A stretch of DNA of 64,000 bases from Patescibacteria group bacterium. GTDB taxonomy: Bacteria; Patescibacteriota; JAHJAL01. The notes under the pieces are model-generated. The model did not search any database, was not told where the DNA came from, and saw only the letters and a program-made list of their open reading frames with translations. Position numbers and translations under genes: made by a program. How positions within the stretch are numbered: position 1 is the stretch's first letter; every line of letters starts with the position of its first letter. The stretch lies in assembly GCA_041648895.1 (NCBI GenBank), contig JBAZOB010000002.1:826-64825 (forward strand), given 5' to 3'. Below are positions 4,406 through 46,616 of this stretch, piece by piece.

Positions 4406-6217
4406 TTATAACACATTAGTAATCAATTTTTTATCACGCTCCTTCTTTATCATCTTCATAAACTCCGCCAAGCTCATCGCCCCCATATCTTCCCCTTGGA
4501 GTGGCCGCACCGAAACGGTTTGATTCTCAATATCTCGATCGCCGACTACCAGAATATAATTAGGCTTTTGTAATTCCGCGTTACGGATCTTCTTGCCCAG
4601 CGAATCATCACCATCATCCACCACCACTCGAAAATCTTTATTAGCTAGTTTCTTAGCTACCTTTTGGCAATATTTCAAATGTTTTTGTGGATAAACCGGC
4701 AAAACAATCATTTGCACAGGAGAAAGCCATAGCGGGAAAGCACCGGCATATTGTTCGATCAATACCCCAATAAAGCGCTCAAATGAACCAAATAAAGCCC
4801 GATGAAGCATATATGGTCTTTCTTCTATGCCTTGCTCATTGATAAAACTCATTTCGAATCTTTCTGGCAGATTAAAGTCAAACTGTAAAGTTGAACATTG
4901 CCACTCGCGACCAATAGCATCCTTAACTTTGAAATCAAGTTTAGGACCGTAAAATGCCGCTTCACCCTCCAATTTCGTATAGGATAACTTTTTATCTTTA
5001 GCTACTTTTTCCAGCACTCCCTCAGTGAATTCCCAACCATTATCATTCCCGGCATATTTTTCCTTATTATTGGGATCACGCAATGACAGATAAACATTAA
5101 ATTCCTTGAACCCAAATGTGCTCAGCATAAAAATAATAAAATCTACCACCCGCTTTAATTCTGATTTTACCTGTTCCTTAGTGCAAACAATATGTGCGTC
5201 ATCTTGTGTAAAACCACGCACTCGTAATAATCCATTCAATTCACCTGATTTTTCATATCGATAAACAGTACCGCACTCGGCCCAGCGATAAGGCAGATCA
5301 CGATATGAGTGCATGCCTGATTTATAAATACGGACATGGAAAGGACAATTCATTGGTTTAATCAAATATTCTTCCTTAACTTTTGCCTCTTCGCCTTTTT
5401 GGTATTCTTCCAACGATTTCCCGACCTCCAACGGTGGATACATGCTGTCATTAAAAAAATTCCAATGACCAGATTGTTCCCACAGTTTTTTATTTCCCAA
5501 GTGAGGCGACCGTACCAGATTGTAGCCGTTATTCAGATGCTCTTTATACCAAAAATCTTCAATAATTCGCCACAATAAAGCTCCTTTGGGCAACCACATT
5601 GGCAATCCCATTCCGACCATCGGGTCAATCAAAAATAATTTTAAATCTTGTCCCAATTTCCGATGATCCCTTTTCTTAGCCTCTTCCACCATTTTCAGAT
5701 AATTATCCAACTCGGCTGGCGTCGCGAACGCCACACCATAGATTCGCTGTAGCATTTTGTTTTTCTCATCGCCCCGCCAATAGGCTCCGGAAATATGAGT
5801 CAGTTTAAACGCCCCCACTTTGCCGGTACTTTCCACGTGGGGACCTTTGCATAGATCAACAAACTTACCGGATCGATACAGAGTAATTTCGCCGTCATTT
5901 AATTCATTGATCAATTCGACTTTATATGGCTCCTGGGCCTGGCCAAAAAAATCCAATGCCTCTTTTTTACTCACCTCTTGTCGCTCAAACTTATTGTTTT
6001 GTTTGATCAAATGTCGCATCTTCTTTTCCAAAAGCGGTAGATCTTCCGGGATCAAAGTGCGCGGCAGGTCAAAATCATAGTAAAAGCCATTGTCGATCAC
6101 CGGCCCAATGGCAAATTTGACTTCCGGAAACATATCCTGCACCGCCTCGGCCATGATGTGCGACAGCGAATGCCGCATCGCGTGTACATATTCTTCGTTG
6201 TTATTTTGTTTATCCAT
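4406..6217 (-). CDS. thrS: Threonine--tRNA ligase
   Basis: Class II aaRS with 'HRKLGQDLKLF' and 'FTQDDAHIVC' (ThrRS motifs) and a C-terminal anticodon-binding domain. Length is 603 aa. Confidence 0.9.
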   Translation of the reverse strand: MDKQNNNEEYVHAMRHSLSHIMAEAVQDMFPEVKFAIGPVIDNGFYYDFDLPRTLIPEDLPLLEKKMRHLIKQNNKFERQEVSKKEALDFFGQAQEPYKVELINELNDGEITLYRSGKFVDLCKGPHVESTGKVGAFKLTHISGAYWRGDEKNKMLQRIYGVAFATPAELDNYLKMVEEAKKRDHRKLGQDLKLFLIDPMVGMGLPMWLPKGALLWRIIEDFWYKEHLNNGYNLVRSPHLGNKKLWEQSGHWNFFNDSMYPPLEVGKSLEEYQKGEEAKVKEEYLIKPMNCPFHVRIYKSGMHSYRDLPYRWAECGTVYRYEKSGELNGLLRVRGFTQDDAHIVCTKEQVKSELKRVVDFIIFMLSTFGFKEFNVYLSLRDPNNKEKYAGNDNGWEFTEGVLEKVAKDKKLSYTKLEGEAAFYGPKLDFKVKDAIGREWQCSTLQFDFNLPERFEMSFINEQGIEERPYMLHRALFGSFERFIGVLIEQYAGAFPLWLSPVQMIVLPVYPQKHLKYCQKVAKKLANKDFRVVVDDGDDSLGKKIRNAELQKPNYILVVGDRDIENQTVSVRPLQGEDMGAMSLAEFMKMIKKERDKKLITNVL

Positions 6218-13445: not shown

Positions 13446-14690
13446 TTAATTGATTATTTTCTTAAAACCGCAATACTCTTGCAAAGCCTTGGGTATGGCC
13501 ACGCTACCATCTGCTTGTTGATAATTTTCCAAGATGGCCAGGGGAAAACGGGAATTAGTCATGGCGGTGCCATTGACGGTGTGGACAAATTTATTTTCAC
13601 CAGCAGCGTTTTTGTATCTGACGTTCATACGCCGCGCCTGATAGTCGGTGGCGTTGGAGGTGCTGGTAATTTCCCGATATTCTCCCAAACTGGGCACCCA
13701 GGCTTCAATATCAAACGATTTGGAGTAGGGGGCACCAATATCACCGGCGCAGATCGCCACCAGTCGATAGGGGATTTCCAATTCCTGCAAAATTTCTTCT
13801 TCAATCGCCAAAAATTCCTGATGCGTGGCTTCGCTCTCTTCCGGCCGAGTAAAAGCAAACATCTCCACTTTGGTAAACTGATGCATCCGATACAAACCTT
13901 TGGCATATTTACCATAGCTACCCGATTCCACGCGGAAACAATGCGATAACCCCACATATTTTTTTGGCAATTCATCTTCAGCCAATATCTCGTCCCGATG
14001 GTACCCAGCCAAGGTAATTTCAGCCGTACCGATCAAACTCAAATCTTGCTTTTCAATACTGTATATCTGGGCTTCATCACCGCGAGGGGCAAACCCGGTA
14101 CTGTGGCAAACCTCATCTTTGGCCATATCCGGCGTTGCCATCAGCGTAAAACCTTTTTTAAATAATTTTTCTAAGGCAAATTTCTGCAAAGCTAAATCCA
14201 GTAGTACTAATTGATTTTTAGCATAATAAAAGGCGCTGCCGGCCACTTTGGCGGCGCGCTCAAAATCGACTAGATCCAAAGCTTCAGCAATCTGTAAATG
14301 GTCCTTGATCTCAAAATCAAAACTTCTCACCTCTCCCACTTGTTTGATTTCCGGATTATCTTTGTCGCTTTTCCCATCCGGCGTATCATCTGACAAAATA
14401 TTGGGCAATTCCCACAATATTTCATCATAAATATGATCAATCTCGGCCAACTTCTTTTCTTCGGTTTCAATTTCTTTCTTGATTGTCTGTAATTTAACAA
14501 TTTCCGCTTGACTAGGTTTTTTCCCGACTTTATTTCTCTCGGCCTTCAATTTATCAATCGCCGTCATCAATTCCCGCTTTTGTTCATCAATCTCCAACAA
14601 ATTGTCAACCGATATCAAATCTTTACCACGTCTCTCTAAACTTTTTTTAACTATTTCCGGATTCTCCCGGATAAATTTTATGTCTAACAT
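13446..14690 (-). CDS. serS: Serine--tRNA ligase
   Basis: N-terminal coiled-coil arm 'MLDIKFIRENPEIVKKSLERRGKD' and class II catalytic core. Length is 414 aa. Confidence 0.9.
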   Translation of the reverse strand: MLDIKFIRENPEIVKKSLERRGKDLISVDNLLEIDEQKRELMTAIDKLKAERNKVGKKPSQAEIVKLQTIKKEIETEEKKLAEIDHIYDEILWELPNILSDDTPDGKSDKDNPEIKQVGEVRSFDFEIKDHLQIAEALDLVDFERAAKVAGSAFYYAKNQLVLLDLALQKFALEKLFKKGFTLMATPDMAKDEVCHSTGFAPRGDEAQIYSIEKQDLSLIGTAEITLAGYHRDEILAEDELPKKYVGLSHCFRVESGSYGKYAKGLYRMHQFTKVEMFAFTRPEESEATHQEFLAIEEEILQELEIPYRLVAICAGDIGAPYSKSFDIEAWVPSLGEYREITSTSNATDYQARRMNVRYKNAAGENKFVHTVNGTAMTNSRFPLAILENYQQADGSVAIPKALQEYCGFKKIIN

Positions 14691-17964: not shown

Positions 17965-19521
17965 ATGAATAAATTCTACATCACTACTTCCATTGTCTAT
18001 GCCACCACCAAGCCCCACGTCGGGTTTGCCATGGAATTGTTTCAAGCTGACGCTATTGCCCGCCTGCATCGCCTGTATGGGCACGATGTTTTTTTCTTAA
18101 GTGGCACTGACGAAAACGGCTTAAAAAATTATCGGAAGGCCAAAGAGTTGGGCATTAGTCCTCAAGAGCATGTTGATGAAGTGAGTAAATTAGTGAAGGA
18201 TTTTGCTGATAGTCACCAAGTATCACTGACCGATTTCATCCGCACCACTGATCAAAAGCGACATTGGCCGGCCGCCCAAAAACTTTGGCAAATATTGTGC
18301 GACAAGAATTTGATAGAAAAAAAGAAATACTCCGGTCTCTATTGTGTGGGTTGCGAAAAATTTATGAAAGAAACTGAGCTTGATGCCGCCGGGAACTGTC
18401 CGCTCCATCACCAGAAACCCGAACCGCAATCCGTTGAAAACTATTTTTTCAAACTGTCACAATTTTCCGAAACCATCTACCAGAAGATAAAAAACAACGA
18501 AATAAATATCATACCCGGTCCTCGTCGTAATGAAATTTTACAAGTCATCGAAAATGGTTTGGAAGACGTCAGTTTCTCCCGTGAAAAATCTCAATTACCT
18601 TGGGGGATACCGGTTCCCAATGATCCGGAACACGTCATGTACGTCTGGTGTGATGCTTTGACTAACTATATTTCCGCCCTGGGATATGCTACCAATGATG
18701 ATAAATTTCAGCACTATTGGCCGGCCGATGTTCATTTTATCGGTAAGGACATTATCCGTTTTCACGCCGGTATTTGGCCCGGCATGCTCTTGGCGGCCGA
18801 CTTACCTTTGCCAAAAAACATTCTCGTCCATGGCTTTATTCATTCCGGCGGTCAGCGCATGAGCAAAACTACCGGCAACGTCATTGATCCCGTGGAAATA
18901 TCAACCAAATACGGCCCCGAAGCGCTGCGCCTTATACTACTCAAAGAAATTCCCACCTTCGGCGATGGCGATCTAACCATGGACAGAATTGGTGAAATAT
19001 ATCACAGCGAATTAGCTAATAAACTGGGGAATCTTGTCTCCCGAGTAATTGCCATGAATAATAAATATTTTGCCGGCCAAATTCCGGCGGGTAATTACGA
19101 TCAAATAATCAATTTTAGTCTTCCCGACCCCCGCCAATATCTGGAAGGCCAAAACAAATTTGGTCAAATTGATAAATATCTACATTCAACCTGGGAGATT
19201 ATTGAAGCCGCCAATCAATTTGTTGACCACCAAAAACCCTGGGAATTGGCCAAAAACCCCGATCAAACCCAACTCACAACCGTAATACTTAATCTTCTCG
19301 AAACCATTCGCCTCATCGCCATGCTCCTTGAACCAATTTCTCCCCATACTTCTCAAAAAATCCTGGCCGCTATTAATCAAGATTATATCGACAGTAGTCA
19401 CCATCAAACCGATCCCGATAAATATCATCAATTATTACAATGGGGCGGCCTCAAACAACAAGTTAGCATTAAATTAGATCAACCACTATTTCCCCGTCTG
19501 GAATTAGAAATTAGAAATTAA
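17965..19521 (+). CDS. metG: Methionine--tRNA ligase
   Basis: Class I aaRS with a KMSKS-like 'KMSKTTGNVIDP', a zinc knuckle 'CVGCEKF...CPLHH', and an anticodon-binding helical domain. Length is 518 aa. Confidence 0.9.
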   Translation: MNKFYITTSIVYATTKPHVGFAMELFQADAIARLHRLYGHDVFFLSGTDENGLKNYRKAKELGISPQEHVDEVSKLVKDFADSHQVSLTDFIRTTDQKRHWPAAQKLWQILCDKNLIEKKKYSGLYCVGCEKFMKETELDAAGNCPLHHQKPEPQSVENYFFKLSQFSETIYQKIKNNEINIIPGPRRNEILQVIENGLEDVSFSREKSQLPWGIPVPNDPEHVMYVWCDALTNYISALGYATNDDKFQHYWPADVHFIGKDIIRFHAGIWPGMLLAADLPLPKNILVHGFIHSGGQRMSKTTGNVIDPVEISTKYGPEALRLILLKEIPTFGDGDLTMDRIGEIYHSELANKLGNLVSRVIAMNNKYFAGQIPAGNYDQIINFSLPDPRQYLEGQNKFGQIDKYLHSTWEIIEAANQFVDHQKPWELAKNPDQTQLTTVILNLLETIRLIAMLLEPISPHTSQKILAAINQDYIDSSHHQTDPDKYHQLLQWGGLKQQVSIKLDQPLFPRLELEIRN

Positions 19522-23819: not shown

Positions 23820-24254
23820 TTATCCCCAACGCTTATCTTTGTAATTGCTTTCCGGCGCATTTTTATTAAACTCCACCATCATCTCATGGGGAGATTTTTT
23901 TGGTTCATTTTCCCCAATGAATAACTTCGTTACCCCATTTCTAATTAGTTTGTATATCATTTTTGACACATCCCCCCAATTATCTTTATCAATATTATAA
24001 CCAGGGCGAAGCTGATTAGGTTTTTCAAATTTAATTTCATTAGCCAATGTCTGTGCTGGCATTGTGTTCTTATTCAAGTTTTTAATATTCTTTACTTCCT
24101 CTGATATTTTTAATAAATCGAATTTTCTCCCGACAACAAAGCAATCATCAACTGCATCGCTTTCCAGATAATCTGTTCGATTTGCTGTCATGTTGTCTAT
24201 TGGTTTATCAGTCTGCCGCATTTTCTCTTGTTCAATTGGATTATCACCAGTCAT
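23820..24254 (-). CDS. Hypothetical protein (144 aa)
   Basis: Clean ORF. No recognisable motif. Confidence 0.4.
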   Translation of the reverse strand: MTGDNPIEQEKMRQTDKPIDNMTANRTDYLESDAVDDCFVVGRKFDLLKISEEVKNIKNLNKNTMPAQTLANEIKFEKPNQLRPGYNIDKDNWGDVSKMIYKLIRNGVTKLFIGENEPKKSPHEMMVEFNKNAPESNYKDKRWG

Positions 24255-24323: not shown

Positions 24324-26528
24324 TTACAGGCTCAAATCGTCACTTATTTTTTGCAGCGCTTCTAGTCCAATTCCCATCAATTTATCCATACTTATTCCTA
24401 ATTCTGCTCCACTATTGATAATTTCCCGACTGGCTCCTCTGGCGAAAGCTTTATCTTTAAATTTCTTCTTCATCGACTCTGTCGTGACTGATTTTAATTT
24501 TTTATCCGGCTGCACCAGGCCGCAGGCGATAATAAAGCCGCTCAAAGGATCTACCGCGTAAATAGCCTTATCCAATCTGGTTTGTCGGACGCCGCCACAA
24601 GCCGGATTATGGGCCTTGATGGCTTGAATAATCAGCGGGCTGACTTTTTTTTCCTTCAAAATTCCCTCAGTAATAATGCAATGCTGGGTTGGTTCCTTCA
24701 TAGTTTTTTCATAATCAATATCGTGTAGTAAACCGGCCAATCCCCATACGTCTTCATCAGCACCGATTTCCTTTGCCACTCCTCTTAAAATCGCCTCCAC
24801 TGCCAAACTATGTTTTTGCAGATTCTCATTGGTTAAATTTTCTCGCATCAATTTTAATGCTTCATCGCGACTAATACCCATTGTCTCCACATTTAATTTA
24901 TCCAGCTCCTCATCGTCCATCAGATCAACAGTCAATCGACTTCCCATTTCATCCAGAGGTAAATCATCGATCAGCTCTTTACTTTTTCTAAGTGGGCGAG
25001 GCGAAGCATCAACTTTGTCGACAATAATATGTTCTACTTCCTCTTTGGCCTTGGGTTTAACAAATGGGAAGAGAATTAATTCCCGAATATTGTCAATTCC
25101 GGTCACCAAAGACATAAAACGATCAATCCCCATTCCCCAGCCGGCAATCGGCGGCATGCCGTGTCGCATAGCTTCAATATAATCCTGATCAAAATCATGG
25201 GCTTCCTCATCGCCTTGGGCTTTATTCAGAGCTTGTAGTTTAAATCTTTCTTCTTGATCAATCGGATCAATCAACTCCGAATAGGCATTGCACATCTCCC
25301 AGCCATTAATTACCAACTGAAAACGATCTACCCGCGATGGATCACCATCTTTTTTTCGAGCCAATGGCGATAATTCAATCGGATGATCAACCAGAAATAC
25401 CGGATTGACAATATGAGGGCGAGCTATCTTTTTATATATTTCATCGATCAACTTGCCATATTCAAGCGTGTTGATATCTCCGTCAATTTCGATTCTAGCT
25501 TGATGAATAAAAGAACGTAAGTCATCAGCCGTTTTGTGATTGGAAAGATCATGCCCGGAATATTCTTTAATTAATTCATAAATATTTCGGCGCGGATAAG
25601 GTGGCGTTAGATCAATCTGTTGCTCCCCGACTTTGACGATTAAATTACCCATTACCTTGGTCATAGTTGTTTTCATCAGTTCTTCCGTCAATATCATCAA
25701 ATCTTCATAATTGGCGTAAGCCTGGTAAAACTCAAATAGCGTGTATTCTTGCAAATGTGATGGATCGCGGCCTTCATTCCGATAAACCCGGCCAATTTCA
25801 TATACTCTCTCGTAACCCGCTACAATCAATGTTTTTAAGGGTATTTCCAACGATATGCGTAATTTAACATCGACATCAAAAGCATTGTAGTGCGTCAAAA
25901 ACGGCTTAGCCAATGCTCCACCAGTCGTGTTTTGCAAGGTTGGAGTCTCAACCTCCAAGAAGCCATTCTTGTCCATAAATTCCCGCATCGCCCTAACAAT
26001 TTTAGCCCGCCGGCGGAATCGTTCTCTCAAACCATCGTCCATCAATAAATCCAGATAACGATAACGATGCTTCTTCTCAATATCTTGTAAACCACTCCAT
26101 TTTTCCGGCAGGGGGCTCAATGATTTAGATAATAATTTGTATTCAAAGACTTCAATCGATTTTTCCCCCCGTTTAGTGACAAAAGCCTGGCCTTTAACTT
26201 GGACAAAATCAGCGATATCAATCAAATCAGAAAAGAAGGCATATTCATTTTCTCCCACTGTATCGGCTTTAAAATGTAATTGTATCTCGGCCAAATCATC
26301 TTTCAGATCAGCGAAAGATGCTTTGCCATGGCCGCGAATCGCCATAATCCGCCCGCACAAGACCAGTTCTTTTCCGGTCCATTTTTCAAAATCAGTCAAA
26401 ATATTACCAATCGAGTCAGTCCGCTCCCCTCGATCGAGGTAAGGCGCCACTCCTGTTTCTTTTATCTTGGCCAGTTTCTCTTCCCGCACCTCTTGTACGC
26501 TCTTATGTATAAAATTATCTGCCGACAT
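24324..26528 (-). CDS. lysS: Lysine--tRNA ligase (class II) fused to a C-terminal HD-domain phosphohydrolase module (YqeK/COG2316-like)
   Basis: The OB-fold anticodon-binding domain and class II catalytic core end near 'GIDRFMSLVTGIDNIRELILFP' (aa ~500). A linker follows, then 'QKHSLAVEAILRGVAKEIGADEDVWGLAGLLHDIDYE' (H...HD signature) to aa 734. Confidence 0.85.
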   Translation of the reverse strand: MSADNFIHKSVQEVREEKLAKIKETGVAPYLDRGERTDSIGNILTDFEKWTGKELVLCGRIMAIRGHGKASFADLKDDLAEIQLHFKADTVGENEYAFFSDLIDIADFVQVKGQAFVTKRGEKSIEVFEYKLLSKSLSPLPEKWSGLQDIEKKHRYRYLDLLMDDGLRERFRRRAKIVRAMREFMDKNGFLEVETPTLQNTTGGALAKPFLTHYNAFDVDVKLRISLEIPLKTLIVAGYERVYEIGRVYRNEGRDPSHLQEYTLFEFYQAYANYEDLMILTEELMKTTMTKVMGNLIVKVGEQQIDLTPPYPRRNIYELIKEYSGHDLSNHKTADDLRSFIHQARIEIDGDINTLEYGKLIDEIYKKIARPHIVNPVFLVDHPIELSPLARKKDGDPSRVDRFQLVINGWEMCNAYSELIDPIDQEERFKLQALNKAQGDEEAHDFDQDYIEAMRHGMPPIAGWGMGIDRFMSLVTGIDNIRELILFPFVKPKAKEEVEHIIVDKVDASPRPLRKSKELIDDLPLDEMGSRLTVDLMDDEELDKLNVETMGISRDEALKLMRENLTNENLQKHSLAVEAILRGVAKEIGADEDVWGLAGLLHDIDYEKTMKEPTQHCIITEGILKEKKVSPLIIQAIKAHNPACGGVRQTRLDKAIYAVDPLSGFIIACGLVQPDKKLKSVTTESMKKKFKDKAFARGASREIINSGAELGISMDKLMGIGLEALQKISDDLSL

Positions 26529-26677
26529 AAATAAACTCCTTAAAAAAATTGCTAATTACAAATTACGAATTATTAAAAATATTTTTTAAATTCGCCATTC
26601 GTAATTATATTAACATTATAAAAAATCCCCAGCACAATTACAAAGCCGAGGATCTTAGCTTGATACAAAATAATAAA

Positions 26678-27142
26678 TTAAGCAATTGTCATTATCCGCA
26701 TTTTAACCTTTCCGCCAGGCGCTTGGATTTCCACTTCGTCACCGACTGCGCGGTCAAGCAAAGCCTTGCCCACTGGCGATTCGACGGATATTTTGCCTTG
26801 ATCAGGATTGGCTTGGGTAGCACCAACCAGCATATATTCGAATTCCTTGCCACTGCGATTAATTTTTACTTTTGACCCCACGCAGACATTGTTACGTCCG
26901 CATTTGTTGTCGCTAATCACATGGTTACGCACGATATCTTCTAATTCCATTATCCGACCCTCCAGCAAGCCCTGCCTTTCTTTGGCGTCAGAATATTCTG
27001 AATTTTCTGAAATATCGCCATAACTTCGTGCTTCCTTGATCTGGGCTGCAATGACCTTCCGTTCGTCATACAAACGGGCCAATTCTGTTTTGATTTCTGC
27101 CAGTCCGTCTTTGGTCAGAATGTATTTGTTGTTTTCGTTCAT
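26678..27142 (-). CDS. greA: Transcription elongation factor GreA
   Basis: N-terminal coiled coil 'LTKDGLAEIKTELARL...ARSYGDISENSEYSDAKERQ' and a C-terminal FKBP-like domain. Length is 154 aa. Confidence 0.85.
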   Translation of the reverse strand: MNENNKYILTKDGLAEIKTELARLYDERKVIAAQIKEARSYGDISENSEYSDAKERQGLLEGRIMELEDIVRNHVISDNKCGRNNVCVGSKVKINRSGKEFEYMLVGATQANPDQGKISVESPVGKALLDRAVGDEVEIQAPGGKVKMRIMTIA

Positions 27143-29389: not shown

Positions 29390-32068
29390 TTATGGTCCGG
29401 GATTCACTGGGGGAGCACCGCCGGGGTTAACTGGAGGGGCGCCACCTGGATTTACGGGCGGAGCACCAGCCGGTCCGTAGGCGCCGCCTAGATTAACAGG
29501 AGGCGCGCCAGCTGGCTGTCGTCTTCGATTCCACCAATTTCTGATTCCACCAATAGCTCTGCCGCCCAATCCAATCGCGCCACCAATTACTGGAATAACA
29601 ACATATCTACCAGCCAATAACCCACCACCAACTTTTAAACCTGTATTTACCACCTCATTATAATTTACATAATTCGTCAAGGGAGCATTATCGCCAATCG
29701 GTTTATCCGGATTCCACAACCACCCCCACCAACTTTCCGGTGCTGGTGATCTGGCTGGAATTGTCGATTGTGCTTTTGCCGCCAACTCTTTTGCAATATC
29801 AACTCTTCTTTCCACATCGGGGATTAACTTACCATCGGTATCTGTCAATCCGTATGAATCTTTCAGACGGTCAATAGAGTCCTGGTCGAGGCCGGCATGA
29901 TGCAGTGCTTCATCGAGATTAACATTATGATGATCAAGTGCCATCATGGCAGCTTTCATCTTGCTTATGTCTTCTGATTGAGCGAATTTTACTACTTTAG
30001 CTAAATCAGATTTTGAAATACCGGTTAGACTCGGTTGTTTTAATGAACTATATTCGCCACTGAACGTATTGTCATAATCAAAATGAGTTGCATCAGCAGA
30101 TTTATTAATCACTTCTTTGGTAAATTGTTCAAGATGAGAAATATCATCCTGATTTTTCAAAATATTAGCCACATGCTGAATGCGAGCCCAGTTTTCTGGT
30201 TTACTGGCATCAAATAAACAATTGCGATCCAAGCCCTTATCAAGACACTGTTTATAAAATACTTGTATATTTTGTCCTTCCAGATGAAAAGTGTGGGGAT
30301 TATCTTGCCACGCCTTAATGATTTCCGGATGTAATGGGATCTCTTGTTGGATTTTTGCCAACTCATCTTTGTAGGCTTGTAGTGTCTCGGCGGAAGTATC
30401 CTTAACGCCATAATCATGACTTGCTACACTTTTTGAATCCGGTGCCATATCGTGATGCCGTAGATCATTATGGTCAACAACATTTGCGTCATGATTTTTG
30501 GTTAATTCCGCATATTTGTCAGCGTCATCAAACTTGTAGTTATCACTGAAATAATGATTATTGTTATCTAAATCAAATTTAGATTGTTTATAATCTGCAA
30601 ACAAACTGTCGTCGTCAGCACTAAATTTATTCGAATATTCTGATTTATCTAATTTGCTCCACCAATCAGCTGCATCTTGATGATTATTCGGATCAACTGG
30701 AGCTCCAAAGCCATGCTCTAGATTATCCGGTACCCCCATTCCTATACCATGGCCATTACCAAAAGTTCCGGACAAATCATTACTCTGATCAACATTGGAG
30801 ACGAAAAACCCTTGATTATGAGGTGAATGAATCACGTTGTGAGCTAAACGCTTTGAAGAATCAACAACGGGAGTGTTATCATTTACATCATTAGCTGAGG
30901 CCATATGGTGACTAGCTGCCAACTCAAACATGCCACCAATAAATCCACCAATAGCAGCGCTTTTCCCCATAGTTTTTAAATGATCCCACGTCGCCTTGCT
31001 TCCGGTGTTTTTAACTGCTTCGTTGTCAACAAAAGATCGATAATTAGTATCTATTTTTTTACCGAAGTTATCGACGTGACTCTGCAATTCTACCATGTAA
31101 TCCAGATCAACCTGCTTGTTTGCCACCAAGCCCCATTTACGTTTAATAAACTCTTTATTTGTTAGTACATTATGGATAGTAGCACCCAATGTCGCCAACT
31201 TTCTTTTCTTTTCTTCTGTCGAATAATTATTACTTTTTAGATAATTTTCTAATTTTGCTCGTAGATCATTGCCCGCAACATCAGGCCCAAAATCCATTTG
31301 AGCTTCAAAACGTCGATCCCACTGTTTTACTTCAAATTGCTTCGCCTGAATTTGCGCGTTAAGAGCTCCCGCACTCATACCAACTAAAACACCACCTAGA
31401 CCAACTAGATAGCCAGCTTTTCTGAGAGTATATATGGACACAACTGAACCAAGAGCCAATAATCCTTGGGCTATTTGTCTGACTCGGATAGATTCTATTT
31501 TATTCGGCCAAGTAACTGCATTTTTATATAATTCAGACGTTTCTTTATTCACCGTTACCAATGCTTCTAGTCTCGGATCATTATATTTAATATCTCGTCC
31601 TTCATTCTTCTCAGCCAAAATTCGCCCAACCATACGAGCAATCTTGCCATCATCGACTGCGATTTTATCTTTGTTCTCAAGCTCGGCCAAGGACCTTTCT
31701 TTTAGTTCATCATGTTTACCCAATTTGAAAGCAATTTTATCCCAAAGATTTCTTACGCCATTTCGAACCCTACCCAGAAGACCAATTATTTCACCTTTTT
31801 TATATCGTTTATCACTATCATGCTTGATAACGGTCGAAGCCATCTCGTTCATTAGCTCGCTTCGTAAGTATTTACACTCATTAAATACTCTTTCCTCATT
31901 GGCTGGGGTATTTACCCCATTCTCATCTAAGATGGTACTAATTCTGTCTTTTAATTTTTTATCAGCAGTGTCAAACGACATTCGCTCGCTATATTTCTCT
32001 TTTCTTTCGCTAGCTGCACTGATTCCTCTAGTGTTAGTGACATCTTTTTCAATTATGAGTGTGCTCAT
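29390..32068 (-). CDS. Large membrane protein (892 aa) with glycine-zipper TM helices, Asp/Asn/His-rich regions, and a C-terminal Pro-rich tandem repeat (GAPPVNPG x4)
   Basis: Hydrophobic GxxxG-rich segments ('GLLALGSVVSIYTLRKAGYLVGLGGVLVGMSAGAL', 'GGGLLAGRYVVIPVIGGAIGLGG') are followed by 'RNWWNRRRQ' and then 'PAGAPPVNLGGAYGPAGAPPVNPGGAPPVNPGGAPPVNPGP'. No known domain recognised. Confidence 0.55.
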   Translation of the reverse strand: MSTLIIEKDVTNTRGISAASERKEKYSERMSFDTADKKLKDRISTILDENGVNTPANEERVFNECKYLRSELMNEMASTVIKHDSDKRYKKGEIIGLLGRVRNGVRNLWDKIAFKLGKHDELKERSLAELENKDKIAVDDGKIARMVGRILAEKNEGRDIKYNDPRLEALVTVNKETSELYKNAVTWPNKIESIRVRQIAQGLLALGSVVSIYTLRKAGYLVGLGGVLVGMSAGALNAQIQAKQFEVKQWDRRFEAQMDFGPDVAGNDLRAKLENYLKSNNYSTEEKKRKLATLGATIHNVLTNKEFIKRKWGLVANKQVDLDYMVELQSHVDNFGKKIDTNYRSFVDNEAVKNTGSKATWDHLKTMGKSAAIGGFIGGMFELAASHHMASANDVNDNTPVVDSSKRLAHNVIHSPHNQGFFVSNVDQSNDLSGTFGNGHGIGMGVPDNLEHGFGAPVDPNNHQDAADWWSKLDKSEYSNKFSADDDSLFADYKQSKFDLDNNNHYFSDNYKFDDADKYAELTKNHDANVVDHNDLRHHDMAPDSKSVASHDYGVKDTSAETLQAYKDELAKIQQEIPLHPEIIKAWQDNPHTFHLEGQNIQVFYKQCLDKGLDRNCLFDASKPENWARIQHVANILKNQDDISHLEQFTKEVINKSADATHFDYDNTFSGEYSSLKQPSLTGISKSDLAKVVKFAQSEDISKMKAAMMALDHHNVNLDEALHHAGLDQDSIDRLKDSYGLTDTDGKLIPDVERRVDIAKELAAKAQSTIPARSPAPESWWGWLWNPDKPIGDNAPLTNYVNYNEVVNTGLKVGGGLLAGRYVVIPVIGGAIGLGGRAIGGIRNWWNRRRQPAGAPPVNLGGAYGPAGAPPVNPGGAPPVNPGGAPPVNPGP

Positions 32069-32673: not shown

Positions 32674-34503
32674 CTATATTTTTTTTAGTAACTCCCTTGC
32701 TTCGCTATTATTATCATCCATTTTTAGTGCCTCATTGAGCTCTTTTTTCGCTTCATCATTCCTGCCGTTCTCTATTAAAACTCGTCCCAAAAAAGTTCTA
32801 ACCCAGGTATTATTTGGTTCAAGATTTTTACATCTTTGAGCAGATTTTAAAGTATTCTTAGTATCACCAAGCTGCATAAAGGCGTGACCCTTATCGTACT
32901 CAGCCCACATCATATTTGGATCAATTATTATTGCTTTATCCAAAAATTCTAAAGCTAATCTTGATTTACCCTCTTTCAAATATTGAGAACCTTCATCTTT
33001 ATATCGATTAACATCTGATTTGAGAAATTTTACCTCGTCTAAATTAGGATTATTGCTATTTACATCTCGGTAGTATTTCATCGCCTCATCATAATCACCG
33101 ATACGAGTTAATATCTCAGCCATAGTAATTTTCACATATGGATTATTCGGAATTTGGTGCAAAGCCGCTTTTTGGAATTCCAATGCATCATCATATTTCA
33201 TCGTTTTTAGTAAAATTGTTGCTGAATCAGCCAACAACCATGGTTCGCCTGGATTCTCTTGACGCGCTTTCATAATATATTTTTCGGCGACTGCATAAAA
33301 ACTCGATTTCAACATTTTAATTGCTTTAGCATGATTACCGGGCTGTATAGTGGGTCTTACCTCAAGGCCAACTTTCCAAGAATGAGCATCTATTTTTGTC
33401 TCAACTTGCGACATATCAATGATGGTTCTATGTTTTCGTGTACTATTAAGATTACTATGCAATGTTTCCACGTTTTTCTGTCTTTTTTTCTCGTCTATTC
33501 TTGTTTCGTGGCTAATGTGATGACAAAAAGCTGAAGGACATGGAACAATGTAGTTTCCCAAGCTCAAAAGTTGCGCAGCCAAAATATCATCTTCAGCTCC
33601 CCAGCCCTTGATTCTTTCGTCATATCCCACCCCAATCTTGATCAAATCTTCTTTTTTGGCAGCAATATTTAATCCCCAGAAAAAGCTATAAGGACCCCAT
33701 TCCCCATGATCAATCCATATATCTTTAGTTTGGCCAAATCTTTTCAAATAATCATAATCAGATAAATGATCATAACACCATCTACCATCTTGTTCTAAAT
33801 CATACGGTAAATTAGGTAAATTACCCTTCAAATTCTCCAAAGAAATTTTTGGATCATCCATTTCAATATGGCCGCGTGCGCCAAACATAATAATATTATC
33901 AAGCTTCTCAAACCTCTTAGCATATTCCTCAATACTATTTGGATTAAGCACCACATCTGGATCATGAAAAATAATATGGCTATTCTTGGCCATATTAACA
34001 CCAGTATATCTGGCTTTTATTGGACCACCATTTTCTTGGCGGCACACTTTAATATTTAAATTTTTAACTAAGCCCTTATCAAATAATTCTTGCACTGCAT
34101 CAGATATATGACTCTCGCCCCTTGTTGATCCATCATCAACTACAACAACTTCCAATCTATCGTTATATTTGTTATTAAACGTGCTCGCTTCGATAGATGA
34201 TAAACATTTTTGTAATCTTTCACCATTGTTATATGCAGGAATAACAATACTTATAGTAGTATTTTTTATTTCGACATTGGTCTCAAAAGATTGATATGGA
34301 TCTTCGGCTAATTTCGATCCAGTTTCCTTTTCATAGTATTTATCCAACTCGTCATAGTTATTACCAAGCTTTTCCAAAATTTCTTTTACTGATTTACCCT
34401 CCAAAGTCATTTGGTCGGCAGTCTTCCGTCTTTCTCGTATTAACTTTTCAATATTATCTGGTAATTTTTTATTTTCCTTTGTCTCATTATTTTCAATATT
34501 CAT
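32674..34503 (-). CDS. Family 2 glycosyltransferase (GT-A fold) with a C-terminal TPR repeat domain
   Basis: 'TISIVIPAYNNGERLQKCL', 'LEVVVVDDGSTRGE' and a DPD motif mark the GT2 domain. C-terminal TPRs include 'AEILTRIGDYDEAMKYYRDV'. Length is 609 aa. Confidence 0.7.
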   Translation of the reverse strand: MNIENNETKENKKLPDNIEKLIRERRKTADQMTLEGKSVKEILEKLGNNYDELDKYYEKETGSKLAEDPYQSFETNVEIKNTTISIVIPAYNNGERLQKCLSSIEASTFNNKYNDRLEVVVVDDGSTRGESHISDAVQELFDKGLVKNLNIKVCRQENGGPIKARYTGVNMAKNSHIIFHDPDVVLNPNSIEEYAKRFEKLDNIIMFGARGHIEMDDPKISLENLKGNLPNLPYDLEQDGRWCYDHLSDYDYLKRFGQTKDIWIDHGEWGPYSFFWGLNIAAKKEDLIKIGVGYDERIKGWGAEDDILAAQLLSLGNYIVPCPSAFCHHISHETRIDEKKRQKNVETLHSNLNSTRKHRTIIDMSQVETKIDAHSWKVGLEVRPTIQPGNHAKAIKMLKSSFYAVAEKYIMKARQENPGEPWLLADSATILLKTMKYDDALEFQKAALHQIPNNPYVKITMAEILTRIGDYDEAMKYYRDVNSNNPNLDEVKFLKSDVNRYKDEGSQYLKEGKSRLALEFLDKAIIIDPNMMWAEYDKGHAFMQLGDTKNTLKSAQRCKNLEPNNTWVRTFLGRVLIENGRNDEAKKELNEALKMDDNNSEARELLKKI

Positions 34504-34549: not shown

Positions 34550-36133
34550 TCATCTTTGAACATCCGAAATAATTTTCATATCGCGCGCCAAGATTAATGA
34601 TGCCGCATGATTCTCATGATAAAACTTTTCCACTTCATAATTATATTCTAGCCCATACTGCTTTGCCATTTTAGACCAATCGGAGCGATTGAGATAATCA
34701 GCTGGGTCAAATTTGTCAGGAAATACTGTTATAAGATTTGCACAATAATTAGCTAATAGATGCCATTTACCGTGATCAGTTGGCAAAACATTATAACCCA
34801 TATTCCGTAATTGATCATTTCTCTCTATGTATCTGTCATAATCTTCAGCAGTCTTTTTAAAACCATGCAATGTTTTAATAATTTCTACCCAATCTTTGTC
34901 GGTAATAACAGAAGCATATTCTTTAAATTTATCCTCTGATACTGTTTTTAAATCTCTTAAGTCGCCGACAAGAAAATCATATTTTTCCCGCCTTTTCCAG
35001 TCCTCAATATCTCTTTTATATCTTTGCCAATCTAGATCTTCGATAGATTTTCTTATCAATTTAGATTTAGAAAACTTATCAGGAAATACCTGTTTTAAAC
35101 TGGCCAAGCTATATAAGTAATTACCTGGTTCCCCTTCCTTCCTCCACCCCAACGTATCTTCAAAAGAATAAAATATTTTTTCATTGATGTTTATTGCAGA
35201 AAATTTTTCTGAGCCTAACAGCACTTTAAGTTTAGGTAATTCAAAAGAAACATCATCCCATTCACAATTCTCTCTACCTAATATCTCAAACGTCTTTTTA
35301 AAATCTCTATTTATCTCTTCTACTTCATACGAAAACGGGAAAATTGGCCCCTCATTCAGATCTTCCCGGCTTGCCCTTCCACTCGACATTGATTTATGCT
35401 CAACCAAATTAAAAGTAGAATCCGAATTATTTTTTTCTTCTATTAAAGATCCAAATAAATCTTTTGCTTCTTTATTGTTGGCATCAATATTCATTGCAGC
35501 CTCTAATTCTTCTCTAGCTTCAGTCATCTTTCCATTCATTATCAAAGCCTTGCCCAAAAAAGTTCTAACCCAGGTATTATTTGGTTCAAGATTTTTACAT
35601 CTTTGAGCAGATTTTAATGCATTCTTAGTATCACCCAGCTGCATAAAGGCGTGACCCTTATCATACTCAGCCCACATCATATTTGGATCAATTACTAATG
35701 TTTTATCAAGATCATCAAGAGCTTTTTGCAATTTTCCCTCTTTTAAATATTTTGTACCCTGATCCTTATAATGATTGGATTGTTCATCAAGAAACTGCAA
35801 TTCTGATAAATTATGATTCAGCTCTCTAGCTGCATCATAATATTGTTTTGCTTGATCATATTGACCCATTCTGGCCAATATATCGCCCATACCAATTTTT
35901 ACATATGGATTATCAGGCATCATTTTCTCTGCTGATCCCTGAAGTTTTTTTGCTTCCTCATATCTAGATCTTTTAAGATATATAGATGCCATATCGTTCA
36001 TTATCCAAGGATCATCTGGATTGTAATGTAATGCTCTTTCTATTAATTTTTCTGCTTCTTTATAGTTCTCTTTTTTCAGCATTTTAACTGCTTCAGAATG
36101 ATTATCAATATTTGTTTTTGTTTCGATGTTCAT
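34550..36133 (-). CDS. TPR-repeat protein (N-terminal ~230-aa TPR module paralogous to the C-terminus of the adjacent GT2 gene) with a C-terminal domain of unknown function
   Basis: TPR helices. The stretch 'PNMMWAEYDKGHAFMQLGDTKNALKSAQRCKNLEPNNTWVRTFLG' is near-identical to the neighbouring gene. Length is 527 aa. Confidence 0.6.
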   Translation of the reverse strand: MNIETKTNIDNHSEAVKMLKKENYKEAEKLIERALHYNPDDPWIMNDMASIYLKRSRYEEAKKLQGSAEKMMPDNPYVKIGMGDILARMGQYDQAKQYYDAARELNHNLSELQFLDEQSNHYKDQGTKYLKEGKLQKALDDLDKTLVIDPNMMWAEYDKGHAFMQLGDTKNALKSAQRCKNLEPNNTWVRTFLGKALIMNGKMTEAREELEAAMNIDANNKEAKDLFGSLIEEKNNSDSTFNLVEHKSMSSGRASREDLNEGPIFPFSYEVEEINRDFKKTFEILGRENCEWDDVSFELPKLKVLLGSEKFSAININEKIFYSFEDTLGWRKEGEPGNYLYSLASLKQVFPDKFSKSKLIRKSIEDLDWQRYKRDIEDWKRREKYDFLVGDLRDLKTVSEDKFKEYASVITDKDWVEIIKTLHGFKKTAEDYDRYIERNDQLRNMGYNVLPTDHGKWHLLANYCANLITVFPDKFDPADYLNRSDWSKMAKQYGLEYNYEVEKFYHENHAASLILARDMKIISDVQR

Positions 36134-36162: not shown

Positions 36163-38691
36163 TCATTTAATATTTAATAAACCTTTCTCTAATCTAGACA
36201 TATCAGTAAAAGTAATTTTACTTTGAGGTGGATTAGTTTTAAACATTCGTTCCCCATAAGCATTTTTCTCTAAATCACCGGCAACATAATTAATGTCATA
36301 TTTTACTCCCCACAATCCCAACGCCCGGCTTAAAACAGCTTTCGTGTCCTCAATAGTTTGTTTCCCGATATCCCTATCTTCGGTTAATAACTCAGTCACT
36401 AAATCATCTTCATATCCGACCCCTGACTCCCGACGTCGTATAACCTTAGGATGTTGATCATATAGACGCCAAAATCTTTGTGACATGTATACATTAAATA
36501 ATGCCGTTGCTTCTTGTTCTAATTTGTCTTTAAACTCTGGTGAGCCAACTTTTAGATCCTTGATCTTCTCTGGTGTTTGCTTTTGCGACATTATATCTTC
36601 CACATACCAACTATCATATTGTCGAGCAAGCGGTATGCCATTTTCAGCCGCATATATATCTCGACGATTATTTGTTGTGACTTTGATGGTATTGTCAAAT
36701 TTTACGGCTTCGTTCCCACGATATGCATTCTCTACAGCATATGAAAGCCGAATATCCTCAGCTATTTCATCTCTGGCATTGTAACCATTGGCCTTGGCAT
36801 AACCTTCAGCGGTCAATGTAGTATTCGGACCACCTGCTTTAGGTAAATAGGCAAAGTATTTATCCCTTTTAGCAATAATATCAACGTACTGCCATAATCT
36901 CCTTGCTGCAACTAGATATGGATACTTCTTAATTTCATCAGAAATATAATCCATTTTTGAAATCAACATTTTGGTATCTCGATTTTTCTCGTAATTATTG
37001 ATAACTTTTTCAAAAAATCTTTCATCAATATCCTGTAAATCTGCATCTGCACTAGCTACTATTAAGTCATGTCTTTGTTTTTTTCGCGCCAGACTTCTCA
37101 TTAATGTAACATCAGTAATCATCTTTCTGAGAAGACCCATATTTTGTTTACTACCAAACTCCTTACTAATGACATTGATTTTTACACCTGGATACTGCTT
37201 TTGAAAATTATCTAACTCCTTCACAGATTTCTCAATATTTTTGTCTGTATCGCCATAAGCATTTACAAAAACATTAATCTCGAAATTTTCGGCGGCAATG
37301 TATCCGCCACCATATTTTTGATTAATGTATTTTTCCAAGGTTTTTTTATATGTTTCCGGTTTTTCTTTAGCGTAAATGGGCAGGCATACAACCACTTTAC
37401 AATTTTCATCCATTGCAGGCAGACTCTCGGTATATTTTTTAATCTCATCAATATATGCTTTGTCAGTTGTCTCTAAATCTTTAAAATATCTCTTCAGTTG
37501 TATTCTTTCCTCTTTTATCCTTTCATTGGCATCGGTGAATTCTTTTACTTTTTCGATCTTTGCACTCGGGCTAGCGTCCGGCCCATAAGGCCTTCCTCGA
37601 TCTGGCCCATATCCTGGTCCATAACCAGGTCCATATCCCGGTCCTGTTCTAATTGGAGTCCACGCGTCACCCTTTTTTGTTGGCCACATTGAATCCACGG
37701 CTCTACCAGTTAAATAGGCAAGAGCAGAACCTAGACCAACTTTTTCAAAGAAACCAAGCCCGCTACCCAATACATGTGTGTTACCATATATAGCATTTTG
37801 TAAGACAGTAAGGTTACCAGCGGCCGGACCAAATGCCCTAGCCACTTTATCGGCTGTCTGTATGGCGTGGCTAGCCTCGCCAGGATTATAAACAAATTCC
37901 GCACCAGTTGCTTTCCAAATAACTTTATGATGATGATCTAAAAATCCGAGAGGATGTTTTTCAGTAATTGGGGTTAGCCCCTTGTCATAATCTTGAATAC
38001 CCAAAGATACTCCGCCCAGTAACCCAACTCCCAAAGTAGCCGCAGTTGAACCAATGGTCCGGCCTAATTTCCAGCGCCGCTCACTAGTCATATTTCTATT
38101 CTGAGTCTCGATTACCTCGGTTTCCTTACTGTGTAAGCGATTAAGTGCTTGTTGAAATTGGTTATAATTACGACTTCTCGCGGCCGTCTTTAACTCATCA
38201 GCTATAGTTGTTAATTCAGTTTGTACCCGCCATTCCAACTGAGCCCTATTTCGCCCCCAATGTAATTGTTCTGCTGCCTCCATTAAACCATCGAAACCTT
38301 CTCTCAAACCAGCCATTGATAGTGATGGGGTTAAAATTGTTCCTATCCCCCCGCCAAAAGTTAAACCAGCAAAAACACCAAAACCACCAATTGTTTTAAT
38401 GCCAATTTTTAACCACTTTCGCCAACGAGTAGTATCATAACGACCAGCCTCATCAAGAGTTTGGGCTGTTCTTCGTTCGCCTTCGCGATTCAACCACGCC
38501 TTGGCACGACTAAATAAACCAGAACCATATCTATCTATGGATCTTTGATGATCTCGTTGAGCCAAATTATTTATCGCATCGAGAGCTCTTTGCTCTAATG
38601 TATCTGGTGGACGGTCCGGTCCATAGGCTGGTCCGTAACTTGGTCTGTGCTCTGGTCCATAACTAGGACCATAACTTGGTCTTGACATCAT
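36163..38691 (-). CDS. Large membrane protein (842 aa) with N-terminal and internal Gly/Pro/Tyr tandem repeats (SYGP, GPGYGP), glycine-zipper helices, and a C-terminal GT2-like glycosyltransferase domain
   Basis: 'PSYGPSYGPEHRPSYGPAYGP' and 'GPGYGPGYGPGYGPDRGRPYGPD' repeats. C-terminal 'VVVCLPIYAKEKPE', 'INVFVNAYGDTD' and 'IVASADADLQD' align motif-by-motif with the GT2 N-domain of the 32674..34503 product. Confidence 0.55.
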   Translation of the reverse strand: MMSRPSYGPSYGPEHRPSYGPAYGPDRPPDTLEQRALDAINNLAQRDHQRSIDRYGSGLFSRAKAWLNREGERRTAQTLDEAGRYDTTRWRKWLKIGIKTIGGFGVFAGLTFGGGIGTILTPSLSMAGLREGFDGLMEAAEQLHWGRNRAQLEWRVQTELTTIADELKTAARSRNYNQFQQALNRLHSKETEVIETQNRNMTSERRWKLGRTIGSTAATLGVGLLGGVSLGIQDYDKGLTPITEKHPLGFLDHHHKVIWKATGAEFVYNPGEASHAIQTADKVARAFGPAAGNLTVLQNAIYGNTHVLGSGLGFFEKVGLGSALAYLTGRAVDSMWPTKKGDAWTPIRTGPGYGPGYGPGYGPDRGRPYGPDASPSAKIEKVKEFTDANERIKEERIQLKRYFKDLETTDKAYIDEIKKYTESLPAMDENCKVVVCLPIYAKEKPETYKKTLEKYINQKYGGGYIAAENFEINVFVNAYGDTDKNIEKSVKELDNFQKQYPGVKINVISKEFGSKQNMGLLRKMITDVTLMRSLARKKQRHDLIVASADADLQDIDERFFEKVINNYEKNRDTKMLISKMDYISDEIKKYPYLVAARRLWQYVDIIAKRDKYFAYLPKAGGPNTTLTAEGYAKANGYNARDEIAEDIRLSYAVENAYRGNEAVKFDNTIKVTTNNRRDIYAAENGIPLARQYDSWYVEDIMSQKQTPEKIKDLKVGSPEFKDKLEQEATALFNVYMSQRFWRLYDQHPKVIRRRESGVGYEDDLVTELLTEDRDIGKQTIEDTKAVLSRALGLWGVKYDINYVAGDLEKNAYGERMFKTNPPQSKITFTDMSRLEKGLLNIK

Positions 38692-45765: not shown

Positions 45766-46188
45766 ATGACCAAAATTAATTTCCAAATTATTACTCCCGA
45801 ACGCACCCTCTTTTCCGAGGAGGTAGACGCCGTGACCTTAAAAACCACTGAAGGCGAAATTACTGTTTTACCCGGGCATATCCCAATTATTACTACCTTA
45901 GCACCAGGAGAATTACGCTTTATAAAAGATAATGAAGAAGTACCCATGGTAGTACTGGGCGGTTTTGCTGAAATTACCAAGACATCAGTTATTGTCCTGG
46001 CTGACGCGGCCGAGAAAGTGGAAGAAATTATCGAAGAACGTGCCTTGGCAGCCAAAAAACAAGCCGAAGAACTCAAGCAAAAGAAAATTGGCGACCAGAC
46101 TGAATTTACCGCTCTTTCCGCTCAGATCGAAAGGGAGTTAGCCAGACTTAAGGTAGCGGAGAAATATAAGAAAAGGAGAAAAATATGA
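45766..46188 (+). CDS. atpC: ATP synthase F1 subunit epsilon
   Basis: 'INFQIITPERTLFSEEVDAVTLKTTEGEITVLPGHIPIITTLAPGELRF' beta-sandwich plus a C-terminal helical hairpin. Length is 140 aa. Confidence 0.85.
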   Translation: MTKINFQIITPERTLFSEEVDAVTLKTTEGEITVLPGHIPIITTLAPGELRFIKDNEEVPMVVLGGFAEITKTSVIVLADAAEKVEEIIEERALAAKKQAEELKQKKIGDQTEFTALSAQIERELARLKVAEKYKKRRKI

Positions 46189-46616
46189 AAACCTATCAAT
46201 TTGAAGACTTTCACGAAGTCGAGGCGGCTGTCGTCTTCTGCGTTGACCCTCGATTTTGGCGCCAAACCATTCAATTCGTTGATGAGGAGCTGGGCATAAA
46301 AAAATTTGATCCCTACACCTATCCTGGTGGACCCTTATGCTTGGCTCGTCCCGAAAGCATGCAACTTTATCTTGATAATATCAAAGCTGCTTCTTTAGAA
46401 CTTCACCACGCTAAAAAAATCATCTTGATCAGTCACGATAAATGCGGCGGCTACCGTCTGATTGAAGGCGTGGAAGGTGAAGAAGCCACCTCTCGTCAAA
46501 AGACTCATCTCGACAGCATCAAAGCTAAATTTATGGAACAATTTCCCGATATCGCAGTCGAAGCCTATTTGCTTAAAATTGTCTCGGATAACGAGATTGC
46601 TTTCGAAAAAATGTAG
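46185..46616 (+). CDS. Hypothetical Cys/His-motif protein (143 aa) with CxDPR and SHDKCGGY motifs, translationally coupled to atpC. Paralogous to the C-terminal half of 47324..48274.
   Basis: ATGA overlap with the atpC stop. 'VVFCVDPRF' and 'ILISHDKCGGYRL' are about 56 aa apart, a spacing and residue pattern reminiscent of the beta-carbonic-anhydrase zinc ligands (CxDxR / HxxCGG). The family is otherwise unassigned. Confidence 0.5.
   Translation: MKTYQFEDFHEVEAAVVFCVDPRFWRQTIQFVDEELGIKKFDPYTYPGGPLCLARPESMQLYLDNIKAASLELHHAKKIILISHDKCGGYRLIEGVEGEEATSRQKTHLDSIKAKFMEQFPDIAVEAYLLKIVSDNEIAFEKM

Follow-up and report, generated by a model that had tools for sequence, protein, structure and literature searches.

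Lysyl-tRNA synthetase (LysRS) is the classical source of diadenosine tetraphosphate (Ap4A) (PMC13627108). YqeK, a protein of the HD superfamily, hydrolyses Ap4N compounds and acts as a decapping enzyme on Np4-capped RNA (PMC13627108, PMC13010140). Two described class II aminoacyl-tRNA synthetases (aaRSs) carry a comparable additional part: LysX, the mycobacterial LysRS-MprF protein, and the beta subunit that belongs to bacterial glycyl-tRNA synthetase of the (alpha-beta)2 type (GlyRS-beta), whose HD domain has lost its catalytic doublet (Ser393/Lys394) and has a role in tRNA binding (PMC8464048). Here we analysed a 64,000-nucleotide stretch of DNA from a Patescibacteria group bacterium (GenBank assembly GCA_041648895.1, contig JBAZOB010000002.1, positions 826 to 64,825 of the forward strand; hereafter the window), in which one gene, lysS~HD, encodes a LysRS joined by a linker to a C-terminal HD domain. 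The fusion bears on the question of how Ap4A and the caps that it gives rise to on RNA are controlled in cells without ApaH or YqeK, notably the genome-reduced Patescibacteria.

As in LysX, a class II LysRS is joined in the window protein to a further enzyme, which would use or handle a LysRS product. The partner in LysX is an N-terminal membrane lysyl-phosphatidylglycerol synthase, whereas that in the window protein is a C-terminal soluble HD hydrolase, and the NCBIfam LysX model matched the LysRS part only. With GlyRS-beta the window protein shares an HD-fold domain as part of a class II aaRS; it differs in that its HD site is intact and its HD family is also widespread as a free protein. 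YqeK (COG1713/TIGR00488, the symmetrical Ap4N hydrolase; Firmicutes) resembles the HD domain in its HD fold, its similar size (about 185-200 aa), the homology of its N-terminal two-thirds, the identical H...HD...H...H...D pattern and its acidic character. The components, a class II LysRS and a YqeK-related HD hydrolase, are thus known; the LysRS-HD architecture and the HD family are uncharacterised. Full-text literature searches returned no description of either, and no mention of 'COG2316', a name that the original prediction for this gene had also used. Databases label the window protein simply 'lysine--tRNA ligase'.

A complete LysRS followed by an HD domain

The gene and its parts were located as follows.

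24324-26528, minus strand: lysS~HD fusion gene (LysRS-linker-HD), one unbroken open reading frame (ORF) of 734 aa that begins with ATG and is closed by TAA (24324-24326), checked by translation
25050-26498, minus strand: complete class II LysRS, aa 11-493 (NCBIfam PRK00484 and TIGR00499, Pfam)
26130-26363, minus strand: OB anticodon-binding domain of LysRS, aa 56-133 (Pfam PF01336)
25062-26078, minus strand: class II catalytic core of LysRS, aa 151-489 (Pfam PF00152, E 6e-80)
24876-25049, minus strand: acidic linker, predicted to be disordered, aa 494-551 (isoelectric point (pI) 4.3; AlphaFold2 (AF2) pLDDT below 50 over residues 496-534)
24327-24875, minus strand: HD phosphohydrolase module, full length, aa 552-734 (positions 1-183 of a model of the standalone family matched)

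The N-terminal part passed the curated cutoffs for lysS. The equivalog model TIGR00499 scored 505.4 bits (cutoff 427.6) over residues 12-493, and PRK00484 scored 575.9 bits (cutoff 468), with model positions 3-488 of 488 covered. The translation shows class II motif 2 as RVYRNEG and motif 3 as GWGMGIDR, and the protein was assigned to LysRS on the cutoffs, the OB domain and the class II core with both motifs. No second LysRS was present within the 64-kb window.

The C-terminal part belongs to the HD superfamily. It exceeded the gathering cutoffs of Pfam PF01966 (HD; residues 572-656, E 4.5e-9, 37-39 bits, cutoff 22) and NCBIfam TIGR00277 (HDIG; residues 567-641, 40-43 bits, cutoff 27.6), and it contains the H...HD...D metal motif (H573, H602-D603, D660). 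A hidden Markov model (HMM) built from standalone family members matched it with 260 bits (E 6e-80), far beyond chance. The two strings by which the domain had originally been recognised were found at aa 573-581 (HSLAVEAIL) and aa 596-607 (GLAGLLHDIDYE). Thus, the original prediction of a single 734-aa ORF made of LysRS and a C-terminal HD domain held, as did its claim that the LysRS is complete; its placing of the LysRS end near residue 505, with an extension of about 200 aa, did not. The LysRS part ends at about residue 493 (ILFPFVKPK), and the extension is 241 aa long, in which an acidic linker of 58 aa is followed by the HD domain of 183 aa.

The AF2 model of the HD domain alone was all-helical, with a pLDDT of 95.5. 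In the full-length model (pTM 0.66) both domains folded confidently and the linker was disordered, which indicates that the linker would serve as a flexible tether. The inter-domain geometry of this model was not confident, so no substrate-channelling argument was drawn from it.

The fusion is real and conserved

The original prediction had recognised that a frameshift or assembly error joining two separate genes could imitate a fusion. The protein is identical to P0121, an NCBI entry 'lysine--tRNA ligase [Patescibacteria group bacterium]' from a metagenome-assembled genome (MAG), and the exact sequence is on record from four sources. A survey of related genomes gave 16 Patescibacteria relatives with 64-78% identity, all 730-737 aa long and in the same frame. 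Their mean identity to the window protein was 69% in LysRS, 70% in HD and 42% in the linker, whose length and frame were nevertheless kept. The gene order infC-rpmI-rplT-greA-lysS~HD-...-priA-tatD-eamA-metG-ksgA was common to the window and the independent MAG GCA_049322675.1 (locus L087). More than 100 further LysRS-HD proteins were found at about 40% identity, 686-751 aa in length and with the HD domain at the C-terminus; their named sources included Spirochaetota, Planctomycetota, Coatesbacteria, Peribacteria, and Roseburia and Ruminococcus (Firmicutes). The whole HD domain was carried by 118 of the 119 long LysRS matches, and in the other lineages the linker varied from about 10 to about 70 aa.

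These results confirmed the lysS-HD fusion as genuine and conserved. Saccharibacteria-type genomes have lysS and HD as separate genes that overlap by 8 nt, and one indel could fuse such a pair; however, a 58-aa in-frame linker of constant length in 16 relatives from different samples, the identical gene order in the independent MAG and the fusions in other phyla reduce the chance of a frameshift or mis-assembly to practically nil. We therefore excluded this artefact, for practical purposes, on conservation and synteny.

A large HD family with a specific link to LysRS

Standalone proteins of 181-185 aa, annotated as 'HD/HDIG domain-containing', form a very large family with which the HD module shares about 50% identity. 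Such proteins were found in Clostridia-type Firmicutes, Chloroflexota, Dictyoglomus, Thermotogae, Bathyarchaeia and several groups of the candidate phyla radiation (CPR). At E<=1e-30, an exhaustive profile search collected 494 clusters (50% identity level). No family-specific curated model was found; the generic HDIG model was the best NCBIfam match both of the window protein and of a standalone member from Dictyoglomus. Among the 150 best family representatives, 106 were standalone and 21 were fused to LysRS (14 full-length, 7 cut at a contig end); the other 23 were long proteins, some of them without a domain scan.

Column conservation was computed over 119 fused and 117 standalone HD domains. 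Invariant or nearly invariant positions were H573, H602-D603, D605, H616, H640, D/E660, G664, P674, K676, F695-A696 and R701, and they fall into two regions of the gene.

24549-24812, minus strand: predicted binuclear metal site (H573, 24810-24812; H602-D603-I604-D605, 24714-24725; H616, 24681-24683; H640, 24609-24611; D660, 24549-24551)
24426-24539, minus strand: family-specific residues of the C-terminal subdomain, G664, P674-x-K676, F695-A696 and R701 (conserved columns without a YqeK counterpart)

The metal ligands were kept in 114-119 of the 119 fusions (H602 in 119, D603 in 114), and all six are present in the window protein. We predict from this pattern that the HD module is catalytically competent and holds two metal ions. 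The C-terminal subdomain with its own conserved residues is presumed to be the substrate-binding region.

Several rarer architectures were observed. P0326 (918 aa) has the order LysRS-HAD hydrolase-HD. P0388 (973 aa; NCBI MFX1535370.1, from a Promethearchaeota MAG) has the order LysRS-PheT B3/4-like (editing-type) domain-HD, and its HDxD motif reads HDIM. In P0311 (656 aa) a PAS-PAS-GGEEF diguanylate cyclase precedes an HD domain of the family that is full-length and retains every ligand. AMMECR1-HD and beta-propeller-HD proteins were also found, as was a fusion of the hotdog 4HBT domain with HD (P0009, L059).

All 21 tRNA-synthetase fusions among the 150 best representatives matched the LysRS of the window, and no other aaRS was seen among the fusion partners identified in this set, in which some long proteins were unscanned. 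Where the genes are separate, the same pairing was found in gene order. In five Saccharibacteria/Patescibacteria-type loci, the HD gene is immediately preceded by lysS in the same orientation, the two being separated by -8 to +73 nt; serS follows the HD gene one or two genes downstream in five such CPR loci, and greA stands two genes ahead of HD in CPR loci of this type, as it also precedes lysS in the window. Across 79 loci, the neighbour families were rnr, smpB, secG, eno and lysS. Fused HD domains were spread over at least four clades of a quick neighbour-joining tree without support values, which is suggestive of at least four fusion or fission events. These data showed an evolutionary linkage of the HD family specifically to LysRS. 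Recurrent and exclusive pairing of this kind is a strong 'Rosetta-stone' signal, and the function is open to simple enzyme assays.

Relation of the HD family to YqeK

Among PDB profiles, the significant matches of the HD family were all YqeK structures (5 of 5: 8jja, 2ogi, 8wmy, 2o08 and 3ccg; best E 5e-8). An hhalign comparison with streptococcal YqeK gave a probability of 98.5% (E 3.5e-15, 112 columns, 33% identity). The PgpH, HD-GYP, Rel and SAH families were not significant by sequence profile.

The six ligand residues of the window protein, H573, H602, D603, H616, H640 and D660, aligned with H29, H58, D59, H91, H117 and D135 of Sp-YqeK, which are its metal ligands (PMC11857287). They aligned equally with the metal ligands of GtYqeK, H21, H50, D51, H83, H109 and D127 (PMC13627108). 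In the alignment with YqeK that the original prediction had called for, the HD metal ligands were therefore conserved at every position.

Other characters set the two families apart. YqeK has an insertion of about 20 residues after the HD doublet and before the third His; it is not present in the window HD family, which has a Leu three residues ahead of the first His and HDxDY (HDIDY in the window protein) in place of the HDYAK of YqeK. The context of YqeK is nadD-rsfS, and that of the window HD family is lysS or rnr-smpB; no NadD cluster was found among the 22 largest neighbour families of the 79 loci. When the window and 86 loci were queried for a true YqeK with a fragment of SP1746, the matches were members of the HD family only. 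Judged by these alignments, the HD family is a sister of YqeK rather than YqeK itself, with the same predicted catalytic core of binuclear type and a substrate-binding subdomain of its own. Because this C-terminal subdomain differs, the substrate preference may differ from that of YqeK.

Proposed function of the HD module

We tentatively favour a function as a producer-tethered hydrolase of dinucleoside polyphosphates (Ap4A/Np4N), to which we give somewhat less than an even chance. This substrate class is favoured because of the LysRS-specific linkage and because YqeK is the only recognisable characterised relative. In the proposed mechanism, the LysRS (the N-terminal 493 residues) would be the housekeeping class II enzyme of the cell and at the same time part of a bifunctional protein, in which an acidic tether of about 58 residues joins it to a binuclear HD phosphohydrolase. 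When tRNA is limiting, LysRS would combine lysyl-AMP with ATP or another NTP to give the dinucleoside polyphosphates Ap4A, Ap3A and Ap4N. The HD module would hydrolyse these products and possibly the Np4 caps that they generate on RNA; Np4-capped RNA is considered as a substrate because YqeK both hydrolyses Np4N and decaps (PMC13010140, PMC13627108). Making and removal of the alarmone would then be coupled stoichiometrically and spatially within one polypeptide. The mean pI of the standalone family members is 5.7 (YqeK, 5.1), and such acidity is more in keeping with a hydrolase of small nucleotides than with an RNA-binding module. The GGEEF-HD architecture of P0311, in which an HD copy follows the producer of another dinucleotide, also fits a producer-degrader picture.

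If the favoured function is correct, the arrangement would resemble that of Rel/SpoT (RSH), GGDEF-EAL and GGDEF-HD-GYP proteins, in which a producer domain is tethered to a degrader in one polypeptide, the degrader here being of the HD type; as noted, one member of the window family also follows a GGEEF cyclase. Kinship of the window HD with those degraders exists only at the level of the HD superfamily. The producer in the window protein also differs, as it is an essential aaRS with translation as its main job, and reciprocal regulation could be drawn only by analogy. The conserved fusion of producer and hydrolase would in that case be a self-limiting alarmone synthase, and a function would be assigned to a large orphan HD family (the 494 clusters collected above).

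Several observations weigh against Ap4A/Np4N hydrolysis. The YqeK model TIGR00488 scored 15.2 bits with the window protein, against a cutoff of 70.15, and no single stretch passed. The alignment with YqeK covers the N-terminal 112 columns and stops just after the last ligand; the C-terminal third, which could not be aligned, contains in YqeK the binding sites for the adenines and for the phosphate chain. The residues with which YqeK contacts the tetraphosphate and the distal adenine of its substrate are R18, R133, F135 and F163 in GtYqeK/BsYqeK (PMC13627108) and K62 in Sp-YqeK (PMC11857287). None of these five has a conserved equivalent at the aligned position, although structural equivalents are possible. 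In a Foldseek search of the PDB, YqeK matched weakly (E about 1e-2, TM about 0.5), and other HD proteins did equally well or better: the GlyRS-beta HD domain (7eiv_C) was at the top (E 1.8e-3), and PgpH reached a TM of 0.56.

Distribution and context raise further doubts. In the study of Streptococcus pyogenes YqeK, YqeK and ApaH were mutually exclusive across bacteria (PMC11857287). Standalone HD members are abundant in Clostridia-type Firmicutes, and if YqeK is present there too, their function would be non-redundant with it. Firmicutes carry YqeK. In the same Clostridia-type genomes the HD gene lies in the cluster secG-(alpha/beta hydrolase or hotdog 4HBT)-HD-rnr-smpB (L005, L007, L010, L014-L017 and others; e.g. 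L005:6001-8676). Over all 79 loci, rnr directly followed the HD gene in the same orientation in 27, often within 0-90 nt, and SmpB was near the HD gene in 23. This neighbourhood points towards RNA metabolism, and the PheT B3/4-like or HAD insertions in the tri-domain relatives are hints of tRNA-directed chemistry.

Taken with the results of the previous section, these points divide the original prediction. Its description of the extension as YqeK-like stood in so far as YqeK is the closest characterised relative; an identity with YqeK did not stand, given the low model score and the absent contacts and nadD context. Likewise, its picture of an Ap4A producer fused to its hydrolase agrees with the LysRS-specific pairing and disagrees with the lack of YqeK identity and substrate contacts, so that Ap4A hydrolysis by the module can be put forward only as an inference.

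The main alternative is that the HD module is a phosphoesterase acting on RNA or tRNA ends, from which it would remove a 2',3'-cyclic phosphate, a 3'-phosphate or a 3'-pyrophosphate. Ends blocked in this way would hinder aminoacylation, which could account for a place on LysRS, or 3'-exonucleolytic decay, which could account for one beside RNase R and SmpB. In this the module would resemble the HD domain of the Escherichia coli CCA-adding enzyme, which has 2',3'-cyclic phosphodiesterase and phosphatase activities. Besides the frequent rnr and smpB neighbours, this alternative draws on the Dictyoglomus locus, in which the HD gene lies between argS and tyrS, on the LysRS-PheT B3/4-like-HD architecture of one relative, on a weak full-length similarity (30 bits) to PRK12703, the archaeal Trm56-HD model, in its HD part, and on the top Foldseek match being the tRNA-facing HD domain of GlyRS-beta (PMC8464048). 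However, it leaves LysRS as the sole aaRS fusion partner unexplained, the domain is acidic, unlike typical RNA-binding modules, and the similarities to GlyRS-beta and PRK12703 are weak. Moreover, secG-rnr-smpB is a conserved gene-order block, from which a shared function may not follow. We regard an RNA-end phosphoesterase as unlikely on this balance. If RNA or tRNA ends are the substrate, the module would be a new type of aaRS-associated quality-control ('end-cleaning') domain, and the placement of the HD gene upstream of rnr-smpB would be explained. To our knowledge, a built-in RNA/tRNA end-cleaning domain has so far been described for no aaRS.

A wider proposal joins elements of both functions. 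The HD family could represent a new RNA-end processing activity (Np4-RNA decapping and/or 3'-phosphoryl removal) that was taken up repeatedly by LysRS and, in the Firmicutes, by the rescue operon of RNase R and SmpB; we consider this doubtful. In a less radical version, the family would be an unrecognised group of Ap4N hydrolases beside ApaH, YqeK and Nudix enzymes, coupled to the producer in Patescibacteria and Spirochaetota. ApaH and the Nudix Ap4A hydrolases would then be functional analogues in Np4N removal and decapping; their folds are unrelated to HD, and no similarity to the window domain was detected.

According to another alternative, the HD module hydrolyses a different nucleotide, such as pApA/pGpG, nanoRNA, cyclic dinucleotides, (p)ppGpp, (p)ppApp, lysyl-AMP or dNTPs/NTPs, and its link to LysRS is regulatory. 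The PAS-PAS-GGEEF-HD protein agrees with such a role, as do the C-terminal substrate subdomain, which is unlike that of YqeK, and the c-di-AMP phosphodiesterase PgpH among the best structural matches. The end-products of RNase R are short oligonucleotides, and these would fit the rnr neighbourhood. On the other side, YqeK alone was significant by sequence profile, the GYP motif is absent from the HD domain, and the candidate substrates, lysyl-AMP excepted, have no known special tie to LysRS. We hold this alternative to be improbable.

Finally, the HD domain might be a non-catalytic appendage that serves tRNA binding, dimerisation or allostery, as in GlyRS-beta, its top structural match; domains appended to aaRSs are often RNA-binding, but the six ligands are kept in the fusions and in the window protein, unlike in GlyRS-beta, the same domain mostly occurs by itself, as a protein of 183 aa, and it is acidic, which leaves this alternative very little probability. 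We rejected it on ligand conservation, since a doublet loss of the GlyRS-beta type was not found.

Other features of the window

Two features lie upstream of lysS~HD.

26615-26643, minus strand: promoter-like site TTGTAA-17-TATAAT, about 85 nt before the start codon (weak; from a consensus scan only, in which the number of sites was not significantly above that in shuffled sequence)
26678-27142, minus strand: greA, directly upstream of lysS~HD (from the ORF listing)

Directly downstream of lysS~HD, a 144-aa ORF (23820-24254, minus strand) had no Pfam or NCBIfam match. The syntenic spot in locus L087 holds several small ORFs, likewise without a match.

The window may hold four aaRS genes including LysRS, of which the family search confirmed LysRS only. 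The other three are the ORFs at 4406-6217, 13446-14690 and 17965-19521, which we take by eye to be ThrRS, SerRS and MetRS from the resemblance of their translated starts. A MetRS at the syntenic position was supported by Pfam annotation in locus L087.

A GT2+TPR gene at 32674-34503 and a TPR gene at 34550-36133 have a large orphan ORF on either side of them. One is an 892-aa ORF (29390-32068, minus strand) with GGAPPVNP-type repeats at its end and no Pfam match; the other is an 842-aa ORF (36163-38691, minus strand) with PSYGP repeats at its start and only a sub-threshold glycosyltransferase-like match. A 98-aa ORF (2047-2343, plus strand) encodes a standalone GIY-YIG nuclease domain (PF01541, E 1e-16). 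A 143-aa ORF (46185-46616, plus strand) matched Pro_CA_2, a putative carbonic anhydrase family, with 32.7 bits (cutoff 30), and it overlaps the F-type ATP synthase operon (about 39.2-46.2 kb) at the end of that operon.

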